Translations under genes and position numbers: made by a program
Notes under the pieces: model-generated
What the model saw: only the letters and a program-made list of their open reading frames with translations
What the model was told of the DNA's origin: nothing
The model's database searches: none
Assembly: GCA_964535655.1 (NCBI GenBank)
Contig: CAZHTP010000002.1
Span: 90,054-154,053, forward strand
DNA: 64,000 nt
Origin: an uncultured Gammaproteobacteria bacterium
GTDB taxonomy: Bacteria > Patescibacteriota > Microgenomatia > JALYQM01
Direction of reading: 5' to 3'
In this document: positions 29,182-64,000 of the stretch, one piece after another
How positions within the stretch are numbered: the stretch's first letter is position 1
Layout: every line of letters starts with the position of its first letter

Positions 29182-30711
29182 ATGAATGCGATCATCTATA
29201 CCAGAGTTTCAACAGATGAACAAGTTAAGGGATTTAGCTTGGGTACTCAGCTAAAGGACTGTCGGGAGTTCTGTGAGTCAAAGGGCTGGACTGTAGTTGA
29301 CGTCTTTCAAGAAGAGGGTGAAAGCGGCACTACTGACAATAGACCTGAACTGAAACGAATGCTTGCGTATCTACAGAAGCATCGAGGTTTAATCCAGTAT
29401 GTTGTAGTCTGGAAGATTGATCGCATTTCACGCCTAATGAAAGACCATTTCAAGATAACGGAGCTTATCGAGGAATGTGGTAGTGTGGTTGTGAGTAAAA
29501 CCGAGTCTTTCGATAAGACACTGTCAGGAGAGCTACAGCAGCGGATACTACAGGTGTTTAGTGAGTATGACAATAAAGTACGAGCTGAGCGATCAGTCAC
29601 AGGTACAAGAGGCGGATTAGAGAATGGTATCTGGATGAGAGGCATTCCAACAGGTTATAAAGGTAGAGATGCTCACAAAGTGCCTTTAGTTGATCCTATC
29701 ATGGGACCAATACTTGCGGATATTCTGGTTACTTTTTCTCGGGGTAATCATGAAGTAAAGCAGATAACGGAGCTTGCGAAACAAAGAGGATTGCTGACTC
29801 CTAAAGACGAAGAGGTTTCCGATAAGACCATGCATAAAATACTTCGTAACCCTTTTTACTATGGTTGGCTGTCGATGCAAGGTAAAAAGATACAGTATGG
29901 CGGGTATGGCAAACACCAGCCTTTAATAGACAAAGACACGTTCTTTAAGATTCAGTCGGCTATGCTCAGTCATAACAACAGATCAAACACACGTCATCGT
30001 AATAGAGAGGAGTTCCCTCTTAAGAAGTTGTTGAGGTGTGGTGTTTGTGGAGGAGATTTAACAGCTGGTTCATCCCCTAACAAAAAGAAAGTACTCTACT
30101 GGTATTATCACTGCCAAAAGTCTGAGCATCTACGTATTCCAAAAGATCTCATAGAGAAGCAGTTTGAAACTATGTTGGAGCGTATTCGTCCTACCGAAGG
30201 GATATTGAACCTATTTCGTTTGGCCATTAGAAACTTGGTCAATGAGCGAATGGGTGATGCGATAACTAATGTTCAACGAGTTGATAAGGAGCTGACAGCA
30301 CTCCGTGATGAAAAAAACGGATACGTGAGGATGAGAGCGAGAAACGAGCTTGATGAAGCATTGTTCTTTCAAATGCTGAGAGAGGTTGATGCTAAGATCA
30401 ACAAAAAAGAGATGATTCGTGCTGAGATGCGAGAGGAAGAAGTTGATATTGATAAGCTATTAGCTCTCTATGAAAGCCTTTTCAAAAATGTGGCGATGTG
30501 GTGGAGAGAAGCACCGCTAGAGTATAAGCAACAGATGCAACATCTGGTATACCCAAAAGGCATAACAGTTATGTCGAAGCTTGGAGAAATACAACACCCT
30601 GAATTAGGCTTAGCGTTCGCAATAGTTGATTCTTTGCGAAGTGGTAGTGCCTTGAGTAGCCCCGAGGGGAATCGAACCCCTGATCTCCAGGATGAGAACC
30701 TGGCGTCCTAG
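29182..30711 (+). CDS. Large serine recombinase (integrase)
   Basis: N-terminal resolvase domain (IYTRVSTDEQ), recombinase domain and Cys-rich zinc ribbon (CGVCGGDLTAG...YWYYHCQKS). The last ~18 codons (..PEGNRTPDLQDENLAS*) are encoded by the antisense of tRNA-Glu. Confidence 0.85.
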   Translation: MNAIIYTRVSTDEQVKGFSLGTQLKDCREFCESKGWTVVDVFQEEGESGTTDNRPELKRMLAYLQKHRGLIQYVVVWKIDRISRLMKDHFKITELIEECGSVVVSKTESFDKTLSGELQQRILQVFSEYDNKVRAERSVTGTRGGLENGIWMRGIPTGYKGRDAHKVPLVDPIMGPILADILVTFSRGNHEVKQITELAKQRGLLTPKDEEVSDKTMHKILRNPFYYGWLSMQGKKIQYGGYGKHQPLIDKDTFFKIQSAMLSHNNRSNTRHRNREEFPLKKLLRCGVCGGDLTAGSSPNKKKVLYWYYHCQKSEHLRIPKDLIEKQFETMLERIRPTEGILNLFRLAIRNLVNERMGDAITNVQRVDKELTALRDEKNGYVRMRARNELDEALFFQMLREVDAKINKKEMIRAEMREEEVDIDKLLALYESLFKNVAMWWREAPLEYKQQMQHLVYPKGITVMSKLGEIQHPELGLAFAIVDSLRSGSALSSPEGNRTPDLQDENLAS

Positions 30712-30730
30712 GCCGCTAGACGACGGGGCC
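30657..30730 (-). tRNA. tRNA-Glu (anticodon CTC)
   Basis: Minus-strand cloverleaf GGCCCCG-TC-GTCT-AGCGGCCTAGGAC-G-CCAGG-TTCTCAT-CCTGG-AGATC-AGGGG-TTCGATT-CCCCT-CGGGGCT-A, very close to canonical bacterial tRNA-Glu. Confidence 0.8.
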
Positions 30731-54882: not shown

Positions 54883-54953
54883 GGGCTGGTAGCTCAGCGG
54901 TAGAGCAGTTGCCTCTTAAGCAATTGGTCCTGGGTTCGAATCCCAGTCAGCCC
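54883..54953 (+). tRNA. tRNA-Lys (anticodon CTT). The 3' 38 nt are also the antisense of the 3' end of recombinase A
   Basis: GGGCTGG-TA-GCTC-AGCGGTA-GAGC-A-GTTGC-CTCTTAA-GCAAT-TGGTC-CTGGG-TTCGAAT-CCCAG-TCAGCCC-A. Confidence 0.8.
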
Positions 54954-56715
54954 ACAAGTTATCATTTCTGACTTCGAACTTTCCTTCGCTGGCAAGCCGT
55001 TGCATTATGTCTTGCGGTAAGCGTAAATCTATTCTTACTTGGTACGGTATTACTTGGTCTTCCTTCTTTCGACCCGCTATAACGTCTTTTTTTGTCGCTT
55101 TTCGAGTGTAAACATGGATTCTATCAACGATAAGATGTATTAAAGTTGACACTTCTTGCCTGTCTGTCATTAGCCCGTCTAAAAATGGTTTATATTGCTT
55201 TGCGAATAACTTAAAGGTTCGAGCATAAACGTTTGAAATTTCACCTTCACCGATTTGAAATTGTATTGTTGCTAAGTCTTTCTTTAATTCGACTTCTTTT
55301 CTATTTATGTTGTCCATTTTTTCGTCATATTCTGCGTCGCTAATATCGCCTCGCTCATACATACGTTTTACGTTTTGACGTCGTCGTGGCAATTCGTTTA
55401 GAACTTTTGTTATATCTGATTGTTTTTTCTCTAGCAGTCTTTTTCTGGCCTTTGTCGATTGAAGTGAATTAACATGGTTGTAGACGCTTTGGGGGTCATT
55501 TAGTAAGTCTTTTACAAAGTTCGATACAAATTGTTCTATCTCGTCGGCTGGGAAGGGAATAGCCCTACAAACAGTCGAATACTTTTTTGTATTCTTTGCA
55601 CCACATTGGTAGTAGTAAGCCCGTTTACCGTTCTTCTTAATAACCTTACTTGTTCCCGTCCAGTTAAGCGGGTCACGGTCAGAATAAGGGTCGTAGCAAG
55701 CATGACATTTTAGAAGACCAGACAATAAATAAAGGTGATTATCAGCCGTTTTCTGGCTATTTCGTAAGGCGATATCTTCTTTAATGCGTTGTTGCGCCAA
55801 TTCAAATATACCGAAGTCGATAATTGCGTCATGCTGGTATGGCGATTTTTCCCATAAAGACCTGTCAAGACGCTTACTTCCCTGGTTCTTGTTGTAATAA
55901 TAAATACCTAAATACACTTCGTCTTTAATAATTGCTCTAACAGTCGAATCGCGCCAAAAATGTGGGTCATTTATCTTCGTGCGGCCTGCCCGTCTTTTGC
56001 CATATTTAATCGCGGAAGGCGAAGGTGTGAGAACTTTTTTATCTATTAGGTAGTCAGCAATTTGCTGGGTATTTCTTTTTTCGACTACAAAAAGTTCAAA
56101 AATGTTGCGCACAATTTCAGTTTCAGGTTGTAAAATTTGAAGCCGCTTATCTTTATCCTTTTTATAGCCATAAGGCGCGTTTGCACCCATATAGACGCCA
56201 CGTTCTATCGCTTGCTTTTTGCCACCCTGCGTTCTATCTTTTGTTGTTTCCCTTTCGAGTTCAGCTACTACCCCGATAATACCTAGCATTGCTTTACCGA
56301 AGGGCGTAGAGGTATCTATACTTTCATTCGCAGAAATGAATTTTATGTCGTGAGCCTCGAAGTATTCAGTTACTTCCAGTAGGATTTTTAGCTTACGGGC
56401 GAATCTATCAATACGATAAACAAGAACAATATCAAAAGGTTTTACGCCACCTGGCGCGTTTTCTATATCTTCTTTCATTCGTATAAACGCGGGTCTTTGC
56501 TCTAAGGGCGTTGTGCCACTAACACCTTCTTCTTTGTATAAATACTGTTTGCCAGCTAAAACCATAGCGGGTTTACCGTTATCAAGATTGCCTTTAGACG
56601 CAATAATCCCTTCTATTGAAGCCTTTTGCAAAGGAATGCCGTATTTTTCCATTTGTTCGTCCGTAGATACTCGAAGATATCCCGCGGCACGAAGTGTTAC
56701 TTGTTGTTTATTCAT
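54916..56715 (-). CDS. Large serine recombinase A
   Basis: YLRVSTDEQ catalytic motif, recombinase domain, and Cys-containing zinc-ribbon region (CHACYDP...YYYQCGAKN). The C-terminus ..WADWDSNPGPIA* is translated from the antisense of the tRNA-Lys T-arm and acceptor. Confidence 0.85.
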   Translation of the reverse strand: MNKQQVTLRAAGYLRVSTDEQMEKYGIPLQKASIEGIIASKGNLDNGKPAMVLAGKQYLYKEEGVSGTTPLEQRPAFIRMKEDIENAPGGVKPFDIVLVYRIDRFARKLKILLEVTEYFEAHDIKFISANESIDTSTPFGKAMLGIIGVVAELERETTKDRTQGGKKQAIERGVYMGANAPYGYKKDKDKRLQILQPETEIVRNIFELFVVEKRNTQQIADYLIDKKVLTPSPSAIKYGKRRAGRTKINDPHFWRDSTVRAIIKDEVYLGIYYYNKNQGSKRLDRSLWEKSPYQHDAIIDFGIFELAQQRIKEDIALRNSQKTADNHLYLLSGLLKCHACYDPYSDRDPLNWTGTSKVIKKNGKRAYYYQCGAKNTKKYSTVCRAIPFPADEIEQFVSNFVKDLLNDPQSVYNHVNSLQSTKARKRLLEKKQSDITKVLNELPRRRQNVKRMYERGDISDAEYDEKMDNINRKEVELKKDLATIQFQIGEGEISNVYARTFKLFAKQYKPFLDGLMTDRQEVSTLIHLIVDRIHVYTRKATKKDVIAGRKKEDQVIPYQVRIDLRLPQDIMQRLASEGKFEVRNDNLWADWDSNPGPIA

Positions 56716-57103
56716 GGTCGTTATTAGTTCCTGGTATGTTATCTTTAACTACCTGCTCGTCTTTTGCGCGAAATCCATGTGTCAATTTATGAAGTAGTTG
56801 CTTATCCTCGGTTTCAGACGACCTTATAACCACTTCTAGCTTCCGTACACCTGTATTCTGCTTGAAGTCTATTGAATACTTATTCAGAACGAGAATGTCC
56901 AGCAAAACCCCACCTAGAGCCTGTAAATCGCTTTCTTTATAAGGTTCTTCCATATCCTGAAACTGGCTCGATTTGAAGTTTTTGTAAGGAATACCCCATT
57001 TATAAATGCACGCATTCCTTTCTATGAGAACAGACATTAGGTCGTCTGGTTGAAATAAGCCGTCTGCTTCTTCGGGAAGTTCGTATTTAGAGTTCTTTTT
57101 CAT
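56708..57103 (-). CDS. Hypothetical 131-aa protein co-transcribed with recombinase A (8-nt overlap)
   Basis: ORF overlaps the recombinase start. No recognisable domain. Its position fits an accessory or directionality factor. Confidence 0.4.
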   Translation of the reverse strand: MKKNSKYELPEEADGLFQPDDLMSVLIERNACIYKWGIPYKNFKSSQFQDMEEPYKESDLQALGGVLLDILVLNKYSIDFKQNTGVRKLEVVIRSSETEDKQLLHKLTHGFRAKDEQVVKDNIPGTNNDHE

Positions 57104-57152
57104 AAATGTTATTTCTAATTATAGCTTAAAGATGTATAATTTAGTATAAGTT

Positions 57153-57341
57153 ATGCCAAGTAAAACAAAACTACTGCGAATAAGGGAAGCCGCCGAACTG
57201 TTAGGCGTAAATCCCGAAACGTTACGACGCTGGGACAATGAAGGGCGTCTAAAGGCTATTCGCATAGGTAAAAGGCAAGATAGAAGATATAAGCCAGAAG
57301 ACGTTCAAAGGATTATTGAAGGTAAAACAAACAATGAGTAA
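57153..57341 (+). CDS. Excisionase/AlpA-like (HTH_17, MerR-superfamily) DNA-binding protein
   Basis: LLRIREAAELLGVNPETLRRWDNEGRLKAIRIG matches the Xis-type HTH pattern. Confidence 0.6.
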   Translation: MPSKTKLLRIREAAELLGVNPETLRRWDNEGRLKAIRIGKRQDRRYKPEDVQRIIEGKTNNE

Positions 57342-58818
57342 CGATAAGGGAAATACACAGCCAAAAATACTTTTTTCAGACCACTTTAATGTAGATAAAA
57401 AGGCACTTGACGAATATGGTGCTTTCGATATTTCATTAGTTGCGGATTTCCCCTTATTCATTGACCCTTTCCTTCTTTTTAATAGTAAAAAGCCTGAATA
57501 CCAGCAACTGCATGACGGAATGATTGCCTATTTGCGATTCTTACGAGACAAGTCGGTTTCCCAGCCAATAGATAAAGGATTATTAGCGGCGTGGTATCGC
57601 TTCAAAGAAGTCAAACAAAATTGGTTAGGTTTTTCTGTAGACGGAAATAGCGGTAGCGCGTTAGGGGCGGACTTTGCTAAAGCATTAAATGAAAACTTTG
57701 CGAAAATCTTTACCGATTACGGTGAAGAAAAGGTAACAAGAAGTTCCCATTTAGAAAAATTGTGTCTGATAAAAGACGGTGTTGGTAAAGACAATATAAG
57801 TGATTTCACGACTAATCTCACCTTAGACTTCTTGCTTCAATATACCCAGTCATTCGCCAAGAAATATATTGACCCCTCACTTTGCAAGGAATTCCGAATC
57901 CCTCGCGTTCGCTTTAACTATGAAACTGAATCGTGGGAAGAAGGTACTTACACACTACCGTCTTATCAAAATGACTTCGTAATTTTAACCCCAAAAGACT
58001 TACTGACAAAAGATGAAACCTGGATAAATAAAGACGACCTTGTTGAAGATTTTTATAATATCCCGAATGCTATTTCTAATGATGAACTTCGTGCGAAAAT
58101 CAACAACTACTTTAGAAGCGTATTGCCAAAAGACCCTAAAAAGAAAGACGAAAAAGAAGCTGCTATAAAAACGATACTAGAATTCCCTGAACTTATTGAC
58201 TACTACATTAAACACAAGGAAGATAACGGCGACAGAGCTACAAGCATTAGCGAACAGAAAGTAGCCCATTCAGAGTTGATGTATGTAGACCAATTTACGG
58301 CTTTCGCAAAACTGCTTGCCGAAAAGACGGACTTTTATAAAACGCCGTATGATTCTTATGACGAAGCTATGCAGCGGGTACAATACCTAAAATCAGTTAT
58401 TGAAAATAACGATGGGTACAGGTTCTTTTATGTAGATAATGAGCCGATAAGACGCGAAGAAGACTTAAAAATTGCCTACCGCCTTACTTGGCGTGGTTCT
58501 ACATTCGATTTTAATACCGAAGTAAATAATGGCCGTGGCCCAGTCGATGTAAAAGTGTCTAAAGGTTCGGCCGATAAAAGTCTTGTCGAACTGAAACTAG
58601 CTACAAATACACAACTTGAAAGGAATTTGCAAAACCAGGTGGGTGTTTATGAAGAAGCAAACAACACGAAGAAAAGTATCAAAGTTATTATCTACTTTAC
58701 CTTTCAAGAATTGCGACGCGTTCAAGGAATACTTAAAAGGTTAGGCCTCGAAGGAAAAGAAAATGTCGTTTTAATTGACGCACGGAAAGATAACAAAACG
58801 TCGGCTTCAAAAGTATAA
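57316..58818 (+). CDS. Hypothetical 500-aa protein with a C-terminal PD-(D/E)xK-like motif (candidate nuclease)
   Basis: The C-terminal segment GRGPVDVKVSKGSADKSLVELKLA fits a PD-x(n)-ExK nuclease motif. The gene ends 3 nt before the methyltransferase gene. Confidence 0.4.
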   Translation: MKVKQTMSNDKGNTQPKILFSDHFNVDKKALDEYGAFDISLVADFPLFIDPFLLFNSKKPEYQQLHDGMIAYLRFLRDKSVSQPIDKGLLAAWYRFKEVKQNWLGFSVDGNSGSALGADFAKALNENFAKIFTDYGEEKVTRSSHLEKLCLIKDGVGKDNISDFTTNLTLDFLLQYTQSFAKKYIDPSLCKEFRIPRVRFNYETESWEEGTYTLPSYQNDFVILTPKDLLTKDETWINKDDLVEDFYNIPNAISNDELRAKINNYFRSVLPKDPKKKDEKEAAIKTILEFPELIDYYIKHKEDNGDRATSISEQKVAHSELMYVDQFTAFAKLLAEKTDFYKTPYDSYDEAMQRVQYLKSVIENNDGYRFFYVDNEPIRREEDLKIAYRLTWRGSTFDFNTEVNNGRGPVDVKVSKGSADKSLVELKLATNTQLERNLQNQVGVYEEANNTKKSIKVIIYFTFQELRRVQGILKRLGLEGKENVVLIDARKDNKTSASKV

Positions 58819-58820
58819 TT

Positions 58821-59831
58821 ATGAAATATATTGCATATACAGTAAAAGGCCTTGAAGATGTCGCTAGGCAAGAAATTAAAGATTTAATCCGTGAAGTGAA
58901 CTTTGCAGACTTAAAACCTAAAAGGATTATCTTCGAAACTAACGATACTAACGCATTAACTAGCTTAAAAACGATTGATGATATTTGTTTACTACTTGTT
59001 ACAAGTGAAGTATCAAACGTCGACGAAGTTTTAGACACTTTTAAGGATATAAACCTAGAAGCGGCAAGGGAACACATAGAACAATATCGAAAGATTGGGG
59101 ATACTTTTTCTGTTACTTTTAGTTTGGCTAAAACGAAGATTAAAACAGAAGAACTTCAAAGCTCTCTAAGTAAGATTATTAGCGAGCGTTACAACTGGGA
59201 ATATACAGAACTCGACCACTCTAATTTCGATGTACGCGTTTTTATAGATAATAAAGAACTGTATGTCTCGGTGCGTCTTACAGAAAAGCCATTATTCCAT
59301 AGAAGTTACCGCACAGTTTCTTCTAAAGGTGGTTTAAGACCTAGTATTGCCGCCGCCCTGGTTAAACTTGCCACAATGGATAGCAAAGGTACTGTCGTAG
59401 ATAATTTCTGTGGTAGTGGAACGATACTCGCCGAAGCATACCTTGCAGGTAATGATATTTACGGTGGGGATATTGAAAATACAGCAGTCGAAGCTACTTT
59501 ACAGAACCTATCTAATTTAGGGTGTAAAACAGACGGTAAGATTAAAAGGTTAGACGCTCTAAAAGCACCATGGAAGGATAATCAATTCGATTTTGCTATA
59601 TCTAACTTGCCATGGGACAAGCAAATTGAAATTAAAAGCGTTACCGATTTATATGTCGGTTCGCTATCAGAATATGCTCGTATCTTAAAACCAGACGGAA
59701 GATTATGTCTATTAGTATCCAAACCAGATTTGCTAATCAAACACGCTAAGACATTTTTCCCAAAGAAGAAGATAGAAAAGATTCAAATAGGATTTTTAGG
59801 GCAAACACCTTCAATAATTACGATTATTTAA
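58821..59831 (+). CDS. SAM-dependent methyltransferase with N-terminal THUMP-like domain (RlmL/Trm14/UPF0020-like)
   Basis: N-terminus MKYIAYTVKGLEDVARQEIKDL (THUMP-like), motif I VDNFCGSGTILAEA (cf. DPMCGSGT), and catalytic motif IV-like ISNLPWD (cf. DPPY/NPPW). Confidence 0.55.
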   Translation: MKYIAYTVKGLEDVARQEIKDLIREVNFADLKPKRIIFETNDTNALTSLKTIDDICLLLVTSEVSNVDEVLDTFKDINLEAAREHIEQYRKIGDTFSVTFSLAKTKIKTEELQSSLSKIISERYNWEYTELDHSNFDVRVFIDNKELYVSVRLTEKPLFHRSYRTVSSKGGLRPSIAAALVKLATMDSKGTVVDNFCGSGTILAEAYLAGNDIYGGDIENTAVEATLQNLSNLGCKTDGKIKRLDALKAPWKDNQFDFAISNLPWDKQIEIKSVTDLYVGSLSEYARILKPDGRLCLLVSKPDLLIKHAKTFFPKKKIEKIQIGFLGQTPSIITII

Positions 59832-60328
59832 GAAGGTTTTATATTTTCTTCAATCCACTTATCTAAATTCATTTGTTGATTGTAGGTAATATATTCTTCG
59901 TCTTCGGTGGGTTCTTCAAACATATCTAATGCTCGTTTAAGTGTTACTTCTTCGAGCTGACCCCGTTCTTGTGTTTTTTCGTTGATTTCCCACCGTCTTT
60001 TGATTTCCTCTAATGGAACATTAAGATAGATAACATTAAACTTTTTCCCTAAACTTTCCGCTATATTTCTGGCTGTTTGTCGCTCGCTTCTTTTAAGATT
60101 ACCCAGGTCTAAAACGACCGTTTTGTCTTCTTTCAGTAGCTTTTTTAGCTTTTCGTATCCTTCTGAATAAACGGTATTCCAGTCTTCTTGTGTCATATCT
60201 TCCACTTCAAAGCCTTTTTCGTCTATAACGTCGTCCATAGAAACTTTGATAAACCCAAAACGATTTACGAGTTCTTTAGTTAAAGTTGTTTTTCCTGAAT
60301 ATGGAAGCCCTGTTAATATATAAAGCAT
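59828..60328 (-). CDS. Small P-loop NTPase/kinase (AAA_33/polynucleotide-kinase-like)
   Basis: Walker A GLPYSGKTT within a 166-aa single-domain protein. Its stop overlaps the methyltransferase stop (convergent). Confidence 0.5.
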   Translation of the reverse strand: MLYILTGLPYSGKTTLTKELVNRFGFIKVSMDDVIDEKGFEVEDMTQEDWNTVYSEGYEKLKKLLKEDKTVVLDLGNLKRSERQTARNIAESLGKKFNVIYLNVPLEEIKRRWEINEKTQERGQLEEVTLKRALDMFEEPTEDEEYITYNQQMNLDKWIEENIKPS

Positions 60329-60352
60329 GTTTAGATTATATCTGATAACGCA

Positions 60353-60952
60353 TTATTTAGCTTCTTGTTCTTTGCTTCTTACGTAATCGTGGTGTCGATT
60401 AAGAAGGTTTTCAAGTAACCTGGCTTCTTCTTCGTTTCTTGGTGCGCCAAGTTGTTGTGAATCACCTCGTTTTTTATTTAATTTTTCAAAGTATTTCATT
60501 TGGTCTAAATACCACATTGCGGCACGAACATTTGGTTGTCTTTCTGATACTAGAATATAAATTGTTTCTTTCGTTAAAGGGTGCGTAAAGGCACGGTAAC
60601 ATGGCTTACGCCCCTCTATAGCAAATGCCAAAGCTAATTGCGCTTGCATTGTTAAATTGTCCTTTGCCAGGCTAGCGACCCGCTGAAATGTTTCAGAGCT
60701 GGCCATGTATTTTTGCCGAGTATTTTCAGGGATATGTGCGTAAATAGCCGAATTTTTGTACGTATGGCCGAGGGATAGATAAAACAAAAAGTTATGAAGT
60801 TTTTCGGCGGTTAATTCTATCTTTCTACCACGCCTTTTTGGGTCTTTCGCGTTAGACAATTCTTTTACAATACTGCGATACACGCTATCAGAAACGTGTT
60901 GTTGAATAAATTCTTCTTCAAATGTTTGTATTACTTCTTTTCTTATATCCAT
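60353..60952 (-). CDS. Hypothetical protein (199 aa)
   Basis: ORF immediately downstream of recombinase B. The basic N-terminal segment (KRRGRKIELTAEKLHNFLFYL) could be DNA-binding. Confidence 0.35.
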   Translation of the reverse strand: MDIRKEVIQTFEEEFIQQHVSDSVYRSIVKELSNAKDPKRRGRKIELTAEKLHNFLFYLSLGHTYKNSAIYAHIPENTRQKYMASSETFQRVASLAKDNLTMQAQLALAFAIEGRKPCYRAFTHPLTKETIYILVSERQPNVRAAMWYLDQMKYFEKLNKKRGDSQQLGAPRNEEEARLLENLLNRHHDYVRSKEQEAK

Positions 60953-60956
60953 AGGC

Positions 60957-62864
60957 TTAATTAGCTAGGCTTTGTAGAAAACTGTTATTTCTAGAAGCAA
61001 AGTGAAGAATTTTAAGGTCAATATCGTTATAATAGAACTGTAACGGAAGTATTTCTTTCTTGTTTAGTTCTGGGTCAGAAATGCTGTCCCACCATTTATC
61101 ATTTTCCACCGTGAACCCAGAATCCAATAAGTTATTTAACATATTATGTGGTAATTTAATCTGGATATCTATCCCATTTGGGATCATTTGGTTGTCTTTT
61201 TTTTGACCAGCTATTTTGTCTTCTTCATTGCGTGGTCTTGCCTGAACAATAATTTTATCTACGATTGAACTAATTAGTTCTTTCAAGAGTTTTGGATCTC
61301 TATTTGTGCTTTGTAAAAAGTCTTTGTATTTTGTCTTAAATTGTTCAAAAACATCCAAATACCCGTCATATAAAATGAAATCACTCAATTGCCGATCAAT
61401 TTCAATAATCTTGTTTTCATAATCTAATTGCTTTTTAATAATTTGTTCTTTATACGCTTGTGCTTTTTCAGCAGAATACACTCCGTGCAATAACGCTTCT
61501 TCATTTCGTGCAATTTGTGCAGGTATACCACCAAGCAATTTCTTGTACTGCTTAATATCGTCTTGCAACTTATCCTTAGCTAATCTTGTAGATTTAAGAT
61601 CACCATAGTGTTTGTAAACTGCTGTAGGGTCTTTTAAGAGGTTTAGTATAAATTGTGTGACATACGCTTCAATTTGCTTAGCAGGAATAGGAATCACAGG
61701 GCATACAGTATCAAACTTTTTTCGGTTTTTCCTATTGCATTGGTAATAGTAAATATATTCTGTCTTGGCTTTATTTTTATGTTTAACACCAGTCCATCCG
61801 AATGATTGATTTTTGGTTAGTAACTTATTTTGATCCAAACTTTCACAATATTTACACTGCAAAAGACTTCCTAATAAATATTCATTTGTATTCGGCTGAT
61901 GATTTATTTTCCTCTCCTTTAGATCTGCGACTCGTAACTGTACAAGCTCAAATAAATGAAAGGGAATGATTGCTGGTTGACTGTATTTTGAGAGAGTCCA
62001 CTCATCTTTAGCGAGCTTTTTACCTTTTTTGGTTTTATTAAAGTAGTAACTACCAGTATATATATCATTTGTTAAAATTTTTTTGACTTGCTCTGCTCTC
62101 CAAAAGAAAATACTATTTTTTTTATTACTATCACCAAGTCTTTTATTGTTTATTATGGCTGAGTCTTCGGGACTTTCTATCATTTCTTCTTGTAGTAAAT
62201 CTGCAATCTGCTGATAAGTGTATTTATGGACACTAAAAAGTTCATGTATTCTTTGAACAATTTTTTCCTCACTAGGTAAAATAATCAATTTCTTATCTTC
62301 ACCACGAATGTATCCATATGGGGGTTGTTTTCCTGCTACCGAACCTTTGTTTTTTGCTACTTCTAGTCCTGACTGAGTTCTTTCAAGAATAACCTCACGT
62401 TCTAGCTCAGCTATCACTCCCATTATGCCAAGCATAGCCCTACCGAACGAATTTGAGGTATCGATGCTTTCTAATGCCGATATGAATTCAACTTTATTCT
62501 TAGCTAGAAAGTCACTTATTTCAAGTAAAATTGTTAGTTTTCTAGCGAATCTATCAATTTTATACACAAGTACAACATCAAAAGGTTTATTTTCACCAGC
62601 ATTTACTAAGTCTTCAATTAGCCTAGAAAACGCTGGACGTTCGTTAATGGGGGTGGTTCCTGAAATGCCATCATCAACATAAACATAGTTCTCACCAGCG
62701 AGAATCATTCGAGGTCTATTATCGTCAAGTACTCCTTTTGTTTTGATAATTGCTTCTACTGTTGCACGTTGCATTTCCAGACCGAACCTCTCTTTCTGAT
62801 CTTCGGTGGAAACTCGTAAATATATTGCAGCTTTTATTTGAGTTTGGGTATTTTCAATTATCAT
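60957..62864 (-). CDS. Large serine recombinase B (paralog of A)
   Basis: IYLRVSTEDQ catalytic motif. Aligns with recombinase A through the N-terminal ~170 aa at high identity. Zinc-ribbon Cys cluster (CKYCESLD...YYYQCNRKN). Confidence 0.85.
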   Translation of the reverse strand: MIIENTQTQIKAAIYLRVSTEDQKERFGLEMQRATVEAIIKTKGVLDDNRPRMILAGENYVYVDDGISGTTPINERPAFSRLIEDLVNAGENKPFDVVLVYKIDRFARKLTILLEISDFLAKNKVEFISALESIDTSNSFGRAMLGIMGVIAELEREVILERTQSGLEVAKNKGSVAGKQPPYGYIRGEDKKLIILPSEEKIVQRIHELFSVHKYTYQQIADLLQEEMIESPEDSAIINNKRLGDSNKKNSIFFWRAEQVKKILTNDIYTGSYYFNKTKKGKKLAKDEWTLSKYSQPAIIPFHLFELVQLRVADLKERKINHQPNTNEYLLGSLLQCKYCESLDQNKLLTKNQSFGWTGVKHKNKAKTEYIYYYQCNRKNRKKFDTVCPVIPIPAKQIEAYVTQFILNLLKDPTAVYKHYGDLKSTRLAKDKLQDDIKQYKKLLGGIPAQIARNEEALLHGVYSAEKAQAYKEQIIKKQLDYENKIIEIDRQLSDFILYDGYLDVFEQFKTKYKDFLQSTNRDPKLLKELISSIVDKIIVQARPRNEEDKIAGQKKDNQMIPNGIDIQIKLPHNMLNNLLDSGFTVENDKWWDSISDPELNKKEILPLQFYYNDIDLKILHFASRNNSFLQSLAN

Positions 62865-62953
62865 AATAGTTCATGGTAGAGTATCTCTGTTTAGTAAAAT
62901 TATTATGATTATCCTATATAACTGTGAACTATATCAAGAGTTTGTTATGAGTT

Positions 62954-63571
62954 TTAAGCCCATTCAATGTCTCGTGTGCTTGCTAGCTCTTTTCCATATT
63001 TTTGCAAGATTCGTTTTATACGGTCTTCTCCTGCTTGCTTACTTTCCTGAACTACTGGTTCAGTATGGACTGTTAAGGTGATGTTAAGTTTTGGAATCAT
63101 ATCCATAGCAAGTTTCATTGATTCAAAATATGTTCTAGTTTTGTACGAGCGTTTGATTGTATCTGTTTCTTGGTACATTTGTTCACGGAAGTAAGGAACG
63201 TCGATAACAAGGAACTGTTTTATTTGCTCTGATAGCGTTTCCTTGACGTTTATCTTCTCTATATCGAATTTTTGTTGCTCCTTTACTAGTGGTTTTGTGC
63301 TTACTTCTGAGGGTGTGAAGTGTTTATTTCGATAGTTATAAAGTGCGGTTCTGCTTGGTAGTGGTGTATTCGGATAGCTATCCGTTAATTGTTTAAGTAT
63401 TGAAGATGGGGAATAGTGTTGTTTGAGTAGTTTATCTATGTTTTGTTTTATCTCAGTTGGCAGTGATTGAATGCCGTCAACAAATCCTGCTTTTCGTATT
63501 TGTCTGGCTTTGTGTAATTGCCGTAGACGGTGGTTCTTGGTGTGTTTCGATACTTTACTCATACTGGACAT
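62954..63571 (-). CDS. Hypothetical basic protein (205 aa)
   Basis: ORF upstream of recombinase B on the same strand. Confidence 0.4.
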   Translation of the reverse strand: MSSMSKVSKHTKNHRLRQLHKARQIRKAGFVDGIQSLPTEIKQNIDKLLKQHYSPSSILKQLTDSYPNTPLPSRTALYNYRNKHFTPSEVSTKPLVKEQQKFDIEKINVKETLSEQIKQFLVIDVPYFREQMYQETDTIKRSYKTRTYFESMKLAMDMIPKLNITLTVHTEPVVQESKQAGEDRIKRILQKYGKELASTRDIEWA

Positions 63572-63697
63572 AGTACACCCTTTTTTGACTCATTTAGCAA
63601 GGTGATTATGTAGTGTACTGGACGGTTTTTGAATATTTTATTTGAAACTCCCTCTATCTGAACTTACTATATTGGGAGTTTTCCAATACTGTATTTT

Positions 63698-63922
63698 CTA
63701 TACAGTTGAAGGGTATAAGTCGTCTACCGTTGCATTGAGTGCTTTTGCAATTCGGTAAAGGTTATATGAAGACGGTGTAATTCGGGCATTTTCGATCAAG
63801 TTTATATACGTTCTGGAAAACCCTGATTCGCCAGATAGATCATCAAGGGTCAAATTCTTCTTTTTTCGTATATTTCGGATATTGTTTCCGACTATTTCCA
63901 TAAACTTTGACTTGGAAAGCAT
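63698..63922 (-). CDS. XRE-family helix-turn-helix transcriptional regulator
   Basis: IRNIRKKKNLTLDDLSGESGFSRTYINLIENA is a classic HTH_3 pattern. Confidence 0.7.
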   Translation of the reverse strand: MLSKSKFMEIVGNNIRNIRKKKNLTLDDLSGESGFSRTYINLIENARITPSSYNLYRIAKALNATVDDLYPSTV

Positions 63923-64000
63923 GCCTTATTTATAGGAAAATGGACAAATTTTCACATCATAATATCGTTAACATTAGTTATTGATAATGCTATTAAGTAA

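Follow-up and report, generated by a model that had tools for sequence, protein, structure and literature searches.

A serine-recombinase element inserted at a tRNA-Lys gene in a Microgenomatia genome, with a predicted nuclease of probable immune function, an RNA-type methyltransferase and a P-loop kinase as probably independent cargo

The locus and its three genes

We analysed a 64,000-nt stretch of contig CAZHTP010000002.1 from an uncultured bacterium of the Microgenomatia lineage (the window, by which we mean this stretch at its full length), and in particular three adjacent genes that encode a 494-aa protein of the DUF8370+DUF8371 type, a 336-aa methyltransferase and a 166-aa P-loop kinase. 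An earlier note, made from the sequence alone, had described three open reading frames (ORFs) within 57316-60328 and had read them as a candidate cargo module on a mobile element. The ORFs are present as described, at 57316..58818 on the forward strand (500 aa from a TTG codon), at 58821..59831 on the forward strand and at 59828..60328 on the reverse strand, and all three lie inside a mobile element, here called element A, which spans approximately 54956-61092 (about 6.1 kb) and is integrated at a tRNA-Lys(CTT) gene. We consider it probable that they are mosaic, independent cargo of this serine-recombinase element and not a three-gene system, the 494-aa protein being a stand-alone immune sensor-effector that travels beside a THUMP/UPF0020 methyltransferase and a PSTK/KTI12-related kinase. 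Had the three genes formed one system, it would have represented a restriction or RNA-repair module of a novel type; the remaining value of the locus lies in the 494-aa protein, which belongs to a very large, horizontally spread family catalogued only as two DUFs.

For the first gene, the ATG at 57334 is a likelier start than the TTG, because it overlaps the stop of an upstream helix-turn-helix (HTH) gene (57153..57341) and because the homologs begin at an equivalent position; the gene then runs from 57334 to 58818 (forward strand) and encodes 494 aa instead of 500. It is closely followed by the methyltransferase gene, as had been claimed, but the distance from its stop codon (58816-58818) to the ATG at 58821 is 2 nt and not 3 nt. 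The methyltransferase and kinase genes converge on opposite strands, and their stop codons do overlap, with 2 nt (59829-59830) in common.

Linkage of the three genes was assessed in 80 metagenomic loci, obtained by scanning contigs with an alignment of the 494-aa family and then searching them for the methyltransferase and the kinase with tblastn. In only one of the 80 loci (L015), that of a 97%-identical relative, were the methyltransferase and the kinase found beside the 494-aa family, and the idea that the three genes form one cargo module is not borne out by this result. The closest named relatives of the window genes are in Candidatus Daviesbacteria, Levyibacteriota, Woesebacteria and Amesbacteria, and two sister elements from this group show how the genes come apart. 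The first, from a member of the Daviesbacteria (L008, GCA_016186955.1), is located at tRNA-Gly(CCC), and the second, from a member of the Amesbacteria (L001, GCA_001773775.1), is located at tRNA-Glu(CTC). DNA homology between the window and the Daviesbacteria element covers 54932-57330 and 58815-61094, and the sole break in it corresponds exactly to the 494-aa gene. This element keeps the methyltransferase, the kinase and a conserved right-end gene, p199, while the slot of the nuclease gene is occupied by an unrelated 264-aa ORF (7196-7990 of L008). The Amesbacteria element shows the reverse, as it retains the 494-aa gene (82% identity) and lacks both enzymes; the interval from the 494-aa gene to p199 (9480-12834 of L001) holds a 205-aa gene followed by Ldh_2, His_Phos_1 and HIT genes. 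This metabolic-looking cargo suggests that small elements of this kind shuttle housekeeping-like genes between lineages of the Candidate Phyla Radiation (CPR).

The 264-aa ORF of the Daviesbacteria element has no match in Pfam or PHROGs and could be a further cargo or defence gene inserted at this hot spot. In that element the recombinase is broken into two pieces and has probably lost its activity.

The 494-aa protein and its family

The 494-aa protein consists of a conserved N-terminal module (residues ~1-370) and a C-terminal domain (residues ~375-485) that is a predicted PD-(D/E)xK nuclease, as had been suspected from a PVD...ELK motif. The prediction is based on fold and on conserved catalytic residues. 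The domain has the core alpha-beta-beta-beta-alpha-beta fold of the PD-(D/E)xK superfamily, and its closest folds are those of the type II restriction enzymes BstYI, BamHI, OkrAI and BglII. The motif corresponds to P403-V404-D405 and E419-L420-K421, which fall in columns invariant across 47 homologs, so that the catalytic residues D405, E419 and K421 are conserved throughout this set, together with E375, Q435 and Y439.

More than 6,398 word-indexed homologs have precomputed Pfam assignments to DUF8370 and DUF8371, and a profile search recovered at least 3,257 cluster representatives (clustering at 50% identity). Between phyla, family members share 55-60% identity, and an alignment of 47 sequences has 60 invariant columns. 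Both PF28123 (DUF8370) and PF28130 (DUF8371) are assigned to all 120 homologs listed, including those 97% and 95% identical to the window protein, and it is on this near-identity to assigned homologs, not on a direct scan, that we place the protein in the two families. Scans of the whole protein, and of its halves separately to E 10, against Pfam and NCBIfam returned no matches, the Pfam set used being one without the DUF8370 and DUF8371 models. Sequence and profile searches of PDB gave chance matches only. Two PHROG families were matched, among them phrog_30194 at 6.4e-40. A literature search found no paper on DUF8370, DUF8371 or PDC-M36, a candidate defence system discussed below.

The earlier note had asked whether homologs occur together with defence genes, and they do. 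A Pfam scan of 87 immediate neighbours in 67 loci of the family showed that restriction-modification and defence families predominate, the commonest being HsdS/Methylase_S (10), ResIII (6), and HsdR_N, Eco57I/MmeI, TIR and YgjP-like proteins (3 each), with DNA methylases and GmrSD (2 each) and AlwI, AAA_13 and KAP NTPase (1 each) found more rarely. One homolog lies directly after hsdM-hsdS. The family also occurs on integrative elements and conjugative plasmids; among the plasmid homologs, which are annotated as hypothetical, one lies in a Tn3-family transposon and another after a methyltransferase-helicase-GIY-YIG set. No copy was present among 50,697 deposited phage genomes, and 14 copies were found in viral or prophage contigs of IMG/VR.

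The family also appears to exchange its effector. Some relatives carry an appended domain, which is TIR in P0394 and P0399, caspase/CHAT with or without EAD7 in P0357, P0367 and P0375, and SIR2 in P0372. In these domain-appended relatives a GRGPxD loop is deleted and D405 is lost with it, and E419, Q435 and Y439 are mostly lost as well, while all forms of ~490-500 aa keep D405, E419, Q435 and Y439. Since the active site is retained only where no other effector domain is present, we regard the family as a conserved sensor or scaffold joined to an exchangeable effector, which in the window would be the nuclease. This pattern also provides a testable argument for which part of the protein is the effector.

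A group of short relatives (P0401, P0404, P0423, P0425 and P0443; 438-477 aa) keeps the N-terminal module and has lost D405. A Pfam scan of three of them (P0401, P0404 and P0425) identified no domain that might have taken over as effector. Such short forms may rely on partner genes, in the manner of the three-gene PDC-M36 cassette.

PDC-M36 is among the known systems closest to the 494-aa protein. It is a PADLOC candidate from a "guilt-by-embedding" screen, which looked for genes lying within defence systems (Payne et al., bioRxiv 10.1101/2024.01.29.577857). Residues 21-267 of the window protein match positions 9-248 of the 457 positions of the PDC-M36A profile (E 1.6e-21), and both are embedded in restriction-modification and defence loci. 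However, the N-terminal module alone is common to the two, the C-terminal nuclease of the window protein lying outside the profile, and the candidate is a three-gene cassette (FAM_01399>>FAM_00303>>FAM_00303) whereas the window gene has no conserved partner. The match to component A is thus partial, and no other component was found among the window neighbours. Defence nucleases and effectors that also have a PD-(D/E)xK domain (such as Shedu SduA, Can2/Card1, Cap4 and McrC) and type II restriction enzymes of the BamHI/BstYI/BglII group showed no detectable sequence similarity to the protein in searches of PDB and Pfam to E 10, and no relationship exists between its N-terminal module and CARF, SAVED, the Shedu N-domain or known DNA-recognition domains.

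Taken by its relatives and their surroundings, the 494-aa protein is probably defensive, with a sensor-nuclease layout. In such a protein the N-terminal module of ~370 aa would sense a cue related to the invader, and sensing would release the C-terminal nuclease (E375, D405, E419-x-K421 and Q435-xxx-Y439), which could then cut nucleic acid so that the invader is restricted or the infected cell is killed. Embedding among restriction-modification genes, defence neighbourhoods and swappable TIR, SIR2, caspase and nuclease outputs are all hallmarks of immune genes. If a defensive role is confirmed, a widespread single-gene defence system would be added to those known, and the window would offer an uncommon case of immunity carried on a mobile element in the CPR. 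We further suggest, tentatively, that the DUF8370 N-terminal module could define a large cross-phylum family of single-protein immune sensors with an interchangeable output, be it PD-(D/E)xK, TIR, caspase/CHAT or SIR2. If this were so, the unusual conservation of the N-terminal module (55-60% between phyla) would mean that the trigger is highly conserved, and genome-reduced CPR bacteria would be acquiring immunity on small serine-recombinase elements.

A different view of the same protein is that it is a conventional stand-alone restriction enzyme, for example an Mrr-like type IV enzyme whose N-terminal module reads modified or foreign DNA, and that it cuts invader DNA directly instead of working as an abortive sensor-effector. 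The closest folds of the nuclease domain, being those of type II enzymes, fit such a role; the gene is often part of a type I restriction-modification operon and does not require a methyltransferase partner of its own, and mrr of Escherichia coli adjoins hsdRMS in a similar arrangement. We nevertheless think this unlikely. The exchange of an active nuclease for TIR, SIR2 or caspase effectors among the relatives counts against it, because exchanges of this sort are characteristic of immune proteins that act by suicide or signalling and not of sequence- or modification-specific enzymes, and a Pfam scan of the N-terminal module revealed none of the known DNA-reading domains (winged helix, SRA, DUF3883 and others).

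The methyltransferase and the kinase

The earlier note had held that none of the three proteins fits a standard family, and for two of the three this was wrong. The 336-aa product of the gene at 58821..59831 (forward strand) is a THUMP plus UPF0020 S-adenosylmethionine (SAM)-dependent methyltransferase of the N2-methylguanosine (m2G) RNA methyltransferase class, as its motifs had suggested. It scores 80.4 bits against UPF0020 (PF01170; cut-off 22.3, E 1.8e-22) and 21.8 against THUMP (PF02926; cut-off 20.6), and it shows a THUMP domain followed by the UPF0020 Rossmann domain with SAM motif I and an NPPY-type motif IV. The two motifs singled out previously, DNFCGSGT and NLPW, show little or no variation in an alignment of 25 homologs, the invariant residues being D194, F196, C197, G198, G200, D217, N262, P264 and W265. 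The best solved relatives are Trm14 and TrmN, and the alignment with Trm14 (3tlj, 5.8e-18) covers both motifs. In its domain order, its DxFCGSG motif I and its NLPW motif IV the protein resembles Trm14/TrmN (tRNA m2G6), Trm11, RlmL and EmtA. It differs from Trm14, EmtA and RlmL in that it falls far below the NCBIfam equivalog cut-offs (101 against 280 for Trm14_Arch, 97 against 625 for EmtA, 68 against 466 for RlmK/L and 81 against 480 for another model), so that no NCBIfam model equates it with a characterised enzyme, and it belongs to a subfamily seen here only in Microgenomates/CPR genomes.

The best full-length models, Trm14, EmtA and RlmL, are all of RNA enzymes, and models of DNA methyltransferases match only residues ~170-270, where SAM is bound. 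The enzyme is therefore of the RNA (THUMP) type and is not a DNA methyltransferase with a target-recognition domain, such as would be the cognate partner in a restriction-modification system. It would most likely place N2-methylguanosine on a host tRNA or rRNA.

The kinase gene (59828..60328, reverse strand) encodes a small P-loop kinase of the AAA_33/KTI12/PSTK-kinase-domain type, in agreement with the earlier assignment. The protein scores 65.8 bits against AAA_33 (cut-off 27, E 6.8e-18) and 52 against KTI12 (cut-off 22). The Walker A motif GLPYSGKT is invariant across 20 homologs, and the invariant residues G12, K13, T14, D32, R83 and R112 include the catalytic aspartate (D32) and the lid arginines that the protein has in common with PSTK, KTI12 and AAA_33. 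Its best solved relative is the kinase domain of PSTK, residues 1-142 aligning with 12-148 of the 259 residues of 3adb_A (1.1e-5). It is not PSTK proper, for it scores 45 bits against a cut-off of 290 and aligns over the kinase domain alone; unlike PSTK, it is only 166 aa long and has no tRNA-binding C-terminal domain, nor does it have a phosphatase or ligase domain. It also matches the phage polynucleotide-kinase family phrog_505 (4.3e-13) and, weakly, the PNK-3'Pase model TIGR01663 (2.1e-5). The subfamily appears to be restricted to CPR genomes. Both enzymes are lineage-specific representatives of classes already known, and they matter less than the 494-aa protein.

The genomic contexts of the methyltransferase were collected by individual look-ups of homologs, a single-sequence contig scan having given two loci. 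Homologs with 44-50% identity are found in ordinary CPR chromosomal surroundings, next to RuvC/YebC, pseudouridine synthase, tRNA synthetases and similar genes, and have no adjoining convergent kinase. Two further methyltransferases that are closer or similar relatives (L013 and L014) also have no kinase next door. The earlier note had allowed that the enzyme might prove to be a housekeeping RNA enzyme with conserved synteny and that the 500-aa protein might lack a nuclease fold; the methyltransferase does group with m2G RNA enzymes of the housekeeping type, although its synteny is not conserved, and the nuclease fold is present. Kinase homologs with 54-71% identity have RuvX/YceG/rpoB, UDG/GroEL or glyoxalase genes as neighbours and no methyltransferase. 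Apart from the lineage of the window, the convergent methyltransferase-kinase pair was seen only in the Daviesbacteria element and on a Woesebacteria chromosome.

That the two enzymes work together on one RNA, perhaps a tRNA, and are carried by the element for an accessory or counter-defence purpose such as tRNA protection or repair, has some appeal. The convergent arrangement with overlapping stop codons is kept in the window, in L008 and in the Woesebacteria loci L011/L012, at identities of 55-85% for the methyltransferase and 73-93% for the kinase; both proteins resemble tRNA-directed enzymes (Trm14/TrmN and PSTK/KTI12); and the pair is inside the element in the window and L008 and beside tRNA-Asn in L011. 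Convergent genes are not co-transcribed, however, the partner is not adjacent in six methyltransferase contexts (L013, L014 and L095-L098) or in five kinase contexts (L102-L106), and the kinase is without the tRNA-binding C-terminal domain of PSTK. On balance we find such a pairing rather improbable.

On the Woesebacteria chromosome (L011, CP065002.1, 7688-9504) the pair comes directly after tRNA-Asn(GTT) and there is no recombinase nearby. It may represent a decayed element of a similar kind or a chromosomal source of the pair. This recombinase-free locus also suggested that the methyltransferase and the kinase could be chromosomal genes that merely adjoin the element, a possibility that we rejected for the window. 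Both genes are inside the element, because the Daviesbacteria copy, located at a different tRNA, repeats this arrangement in full, starting with the recombinase, continuing as far as p199 and ending with the detached recombinase tail described below.

The place of the genes on the element

Given that the 494-aa gene is mobile, its product could instead serve the element itself, in maintenance, addiction, exclusion of rivals or DNA processing during transfer. The occurrence of the family on integrative elements, a Tn3-family transposon, conjugative plasmids and the 14 IMG/VR contigs, and its matches to two PHROG families, are in keeping with this. Against it, the gene is in a variable slot and is absent from the Daviesbacteria element, which otherwise keeps the whole frame; most neighbours of the family are restriction-modification or defence genes and not genes of transfer or replication; and the family is absent from the deposited phage genomes. 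A function for the element is thus very unlikely.

The reading of all three genes as one module, either an atypical restriction-modification or defence system or a Pnkp/Hen1-like RNA-end set, can draw on the 2-nt spacing of the first two genes, which probably have a common promoter upstream of the HTH gene, on the joint travel of all three genes in the lineage of the window and L015, and on the polynucleotide-kinase matches of the kinase, but it is largely refuted by the comparative data and is highly improbable, as the three genes occur together in one locus of 80, the Daviesbacteria slot holds a different gene, the Amesbacteria element has neither enzyme, the methyltransferase has a THUMP RNA-binding domain and the tRNA m2G enzyme Trm14 as closest solved relative, and the kinase, which consists of a single 166-aa domain, converges on its neighbour and is unlinked in all five other kinase contexts sampled, with no Hen1-type, phosphatase or ligase/adenylyltransferase domain matched in Pfam or NCBIfam. 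Independent cargo, with the 494-aa gene in the variable slot of the element, is the explanation that we retain.

Structure and ends of element A

Element A is inserted at tRNA-Lys(CTT) (54883..54955, forward strand; identified by ARAGORN and Rfam), the 3' end of which abuts its left end. The junction, in which ...CAGCCCA is followed directly by CAAGTTATCATTTCTGACTTC, is kept after three different tRNAs, namely Lys in the window, Gly in the Daviesbacteria element and Glu in the Amesbacteria element. All three elements have in common a left end, CAAGTTATCATTTCTGAC..., directly after the tRNA and a right end, ...GTCAGAAATGCTGTCCCAC, which is its inverted repeat. A repeat search and the comparison of junctions placed the left-end recombinase half-site (P' arm), CAAGTTATCATTTCTGACTTCGAACT, at 54956..54981. 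The left arm is an inverted repeat of the right arm, 54963-54980 being 83% complementary to 61066-61083 (repeat pair I15).

The recombinase of the element, LSR1, is a large serine recombinase (LSR) of 599 aa (54916..56715, reverse strand) with Pfam matches to Resolvase (3.3e-31), Recombinase (1e-19) and Zn_ribbon_recom (9e-8). Its final ~13 codons run into tRNA-Lys, and it is 77-80% identical to the recombinases of the Amesbacteria and Daviesbacteria elements. Its start is overlapped by 8 nt by a gene for a 131-aa protein (56708..57103, reverse strand), which is conserved with the recombinase in every sister element (66-86% identity in L001, L008 and L015) and has no match in Pfam, NCBIfam, PADLOC or PHROGs. 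This ORF is a candidate recombination directionality factor or regulator. The HTH gene (57153..57341, forward strand) encodes a 62-aa protein of the MerR/excisionase type (HTH_17 1.8e-12, MerR_1 7e-12, TIGR01764 excisionase domain 1e-8) and heads the rightward operon; a conserved TGTATAAT box lies upstream of it in the window and in the Daviesbacteria element. When 56600-61200 was scanned for promoters and terminators, fewer sites were predicted there than in shuffled controls.

At the right end is p199 (60353..60952, reverse strand), which encodes a conserved protein of 199 aa that is weakly similar to a terminase-small-subunit-like HTH family (phrog_4102, 4.9e-5). Its homologs occupy the right end of the element in L001, L008 and L015. 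It is followed by the last ~46 codons of a serine-recombinase ORF (60957..61094, reverse strand), which form the end of the element and include the P arm, AGTTCTGGGTCAGAAATGCTGTCCCAC (61066-61092). The blastn homology with the Daviesbacteria element ends at 61094. A similar recombinase fragment of ~40-45 codons is found after p199 in L001, L008 and L015, where LSR2, the second recombinase of the window, is absent.

With its Resolvase, Recombinase and Zn-ribbon recombinase domains, its imperfect inverted half-sites and the recurrence of its gene frame at three tRNA targets, element A is an LSR integrative element, and the small HTH/excisionase-like gene is a further feature that it has in common with such elements. 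It departs from them in having its crossover point within the 3' end of the recombinase ORF and, once integrated, a recombinase copy that stops within the tRNA. This position of the recombination site is seen at 54916-54981 and 60957-61094 of the window, 10139-10273 of L008, 12861-12974 of L001 and 7058-7171 of L015. In the integrated copies the last ~40-46 recombinase codons, which are homologous to LSR2 residues 591-635, are at the far right, after p199, and the recombinase itself ends in or at the tRNA, the window copy ending ...NDNLWADWDSNPGPIA.

Because the crossover is inside the 3' end of the recombinase ORF, integration splits off its final ~46 codons, which come to lie at the opposite end of the element. 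On excision, a full-length recombinase ORF followed by p199 would be re-formed. A possible role for this exchange of tails could be to switch the C-terminus of the recombinase between the integrated and the free state.

A second tandem element and a third recombinase

LSR2 (60957..62864, reverse strand; 635 aa) is the recombinase of a second element in tandem with the first. It has Pfam matches to Resolvase (1.2e-33) and Recombinase (6.1e-18), shares 41% identity with LSR1 and is fused in frame to the right end of element A. This arrangement looks like a tandem array with an attP-like junction. The second element (B), of which 60957-64000 is within the window, contains LSR2, a 205-aa gene and a 74-aa XRE-type HTH gene, and extends beyond the window end. 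The A/B junction resembles an intact attP, with the P arm contributed by A and a P'-like arm, TTTATCATTTTCCACCGTGAAC, contributed by B, and it regenerates the full-length LSR2 ORF.

A third serine-recombinase-like ORF of 509 aa is located at 29182-30711 (forward strand) and is ~25% identical to LSR1. Its 3' end overlaps tRNA-Glu(CTC) (30656-30730, reverse strand), which is the same layout of a recombinase running into a tRNA as in LSR1, and tRNA-Glu is also the target used by the Amesbacteria relative of element A.

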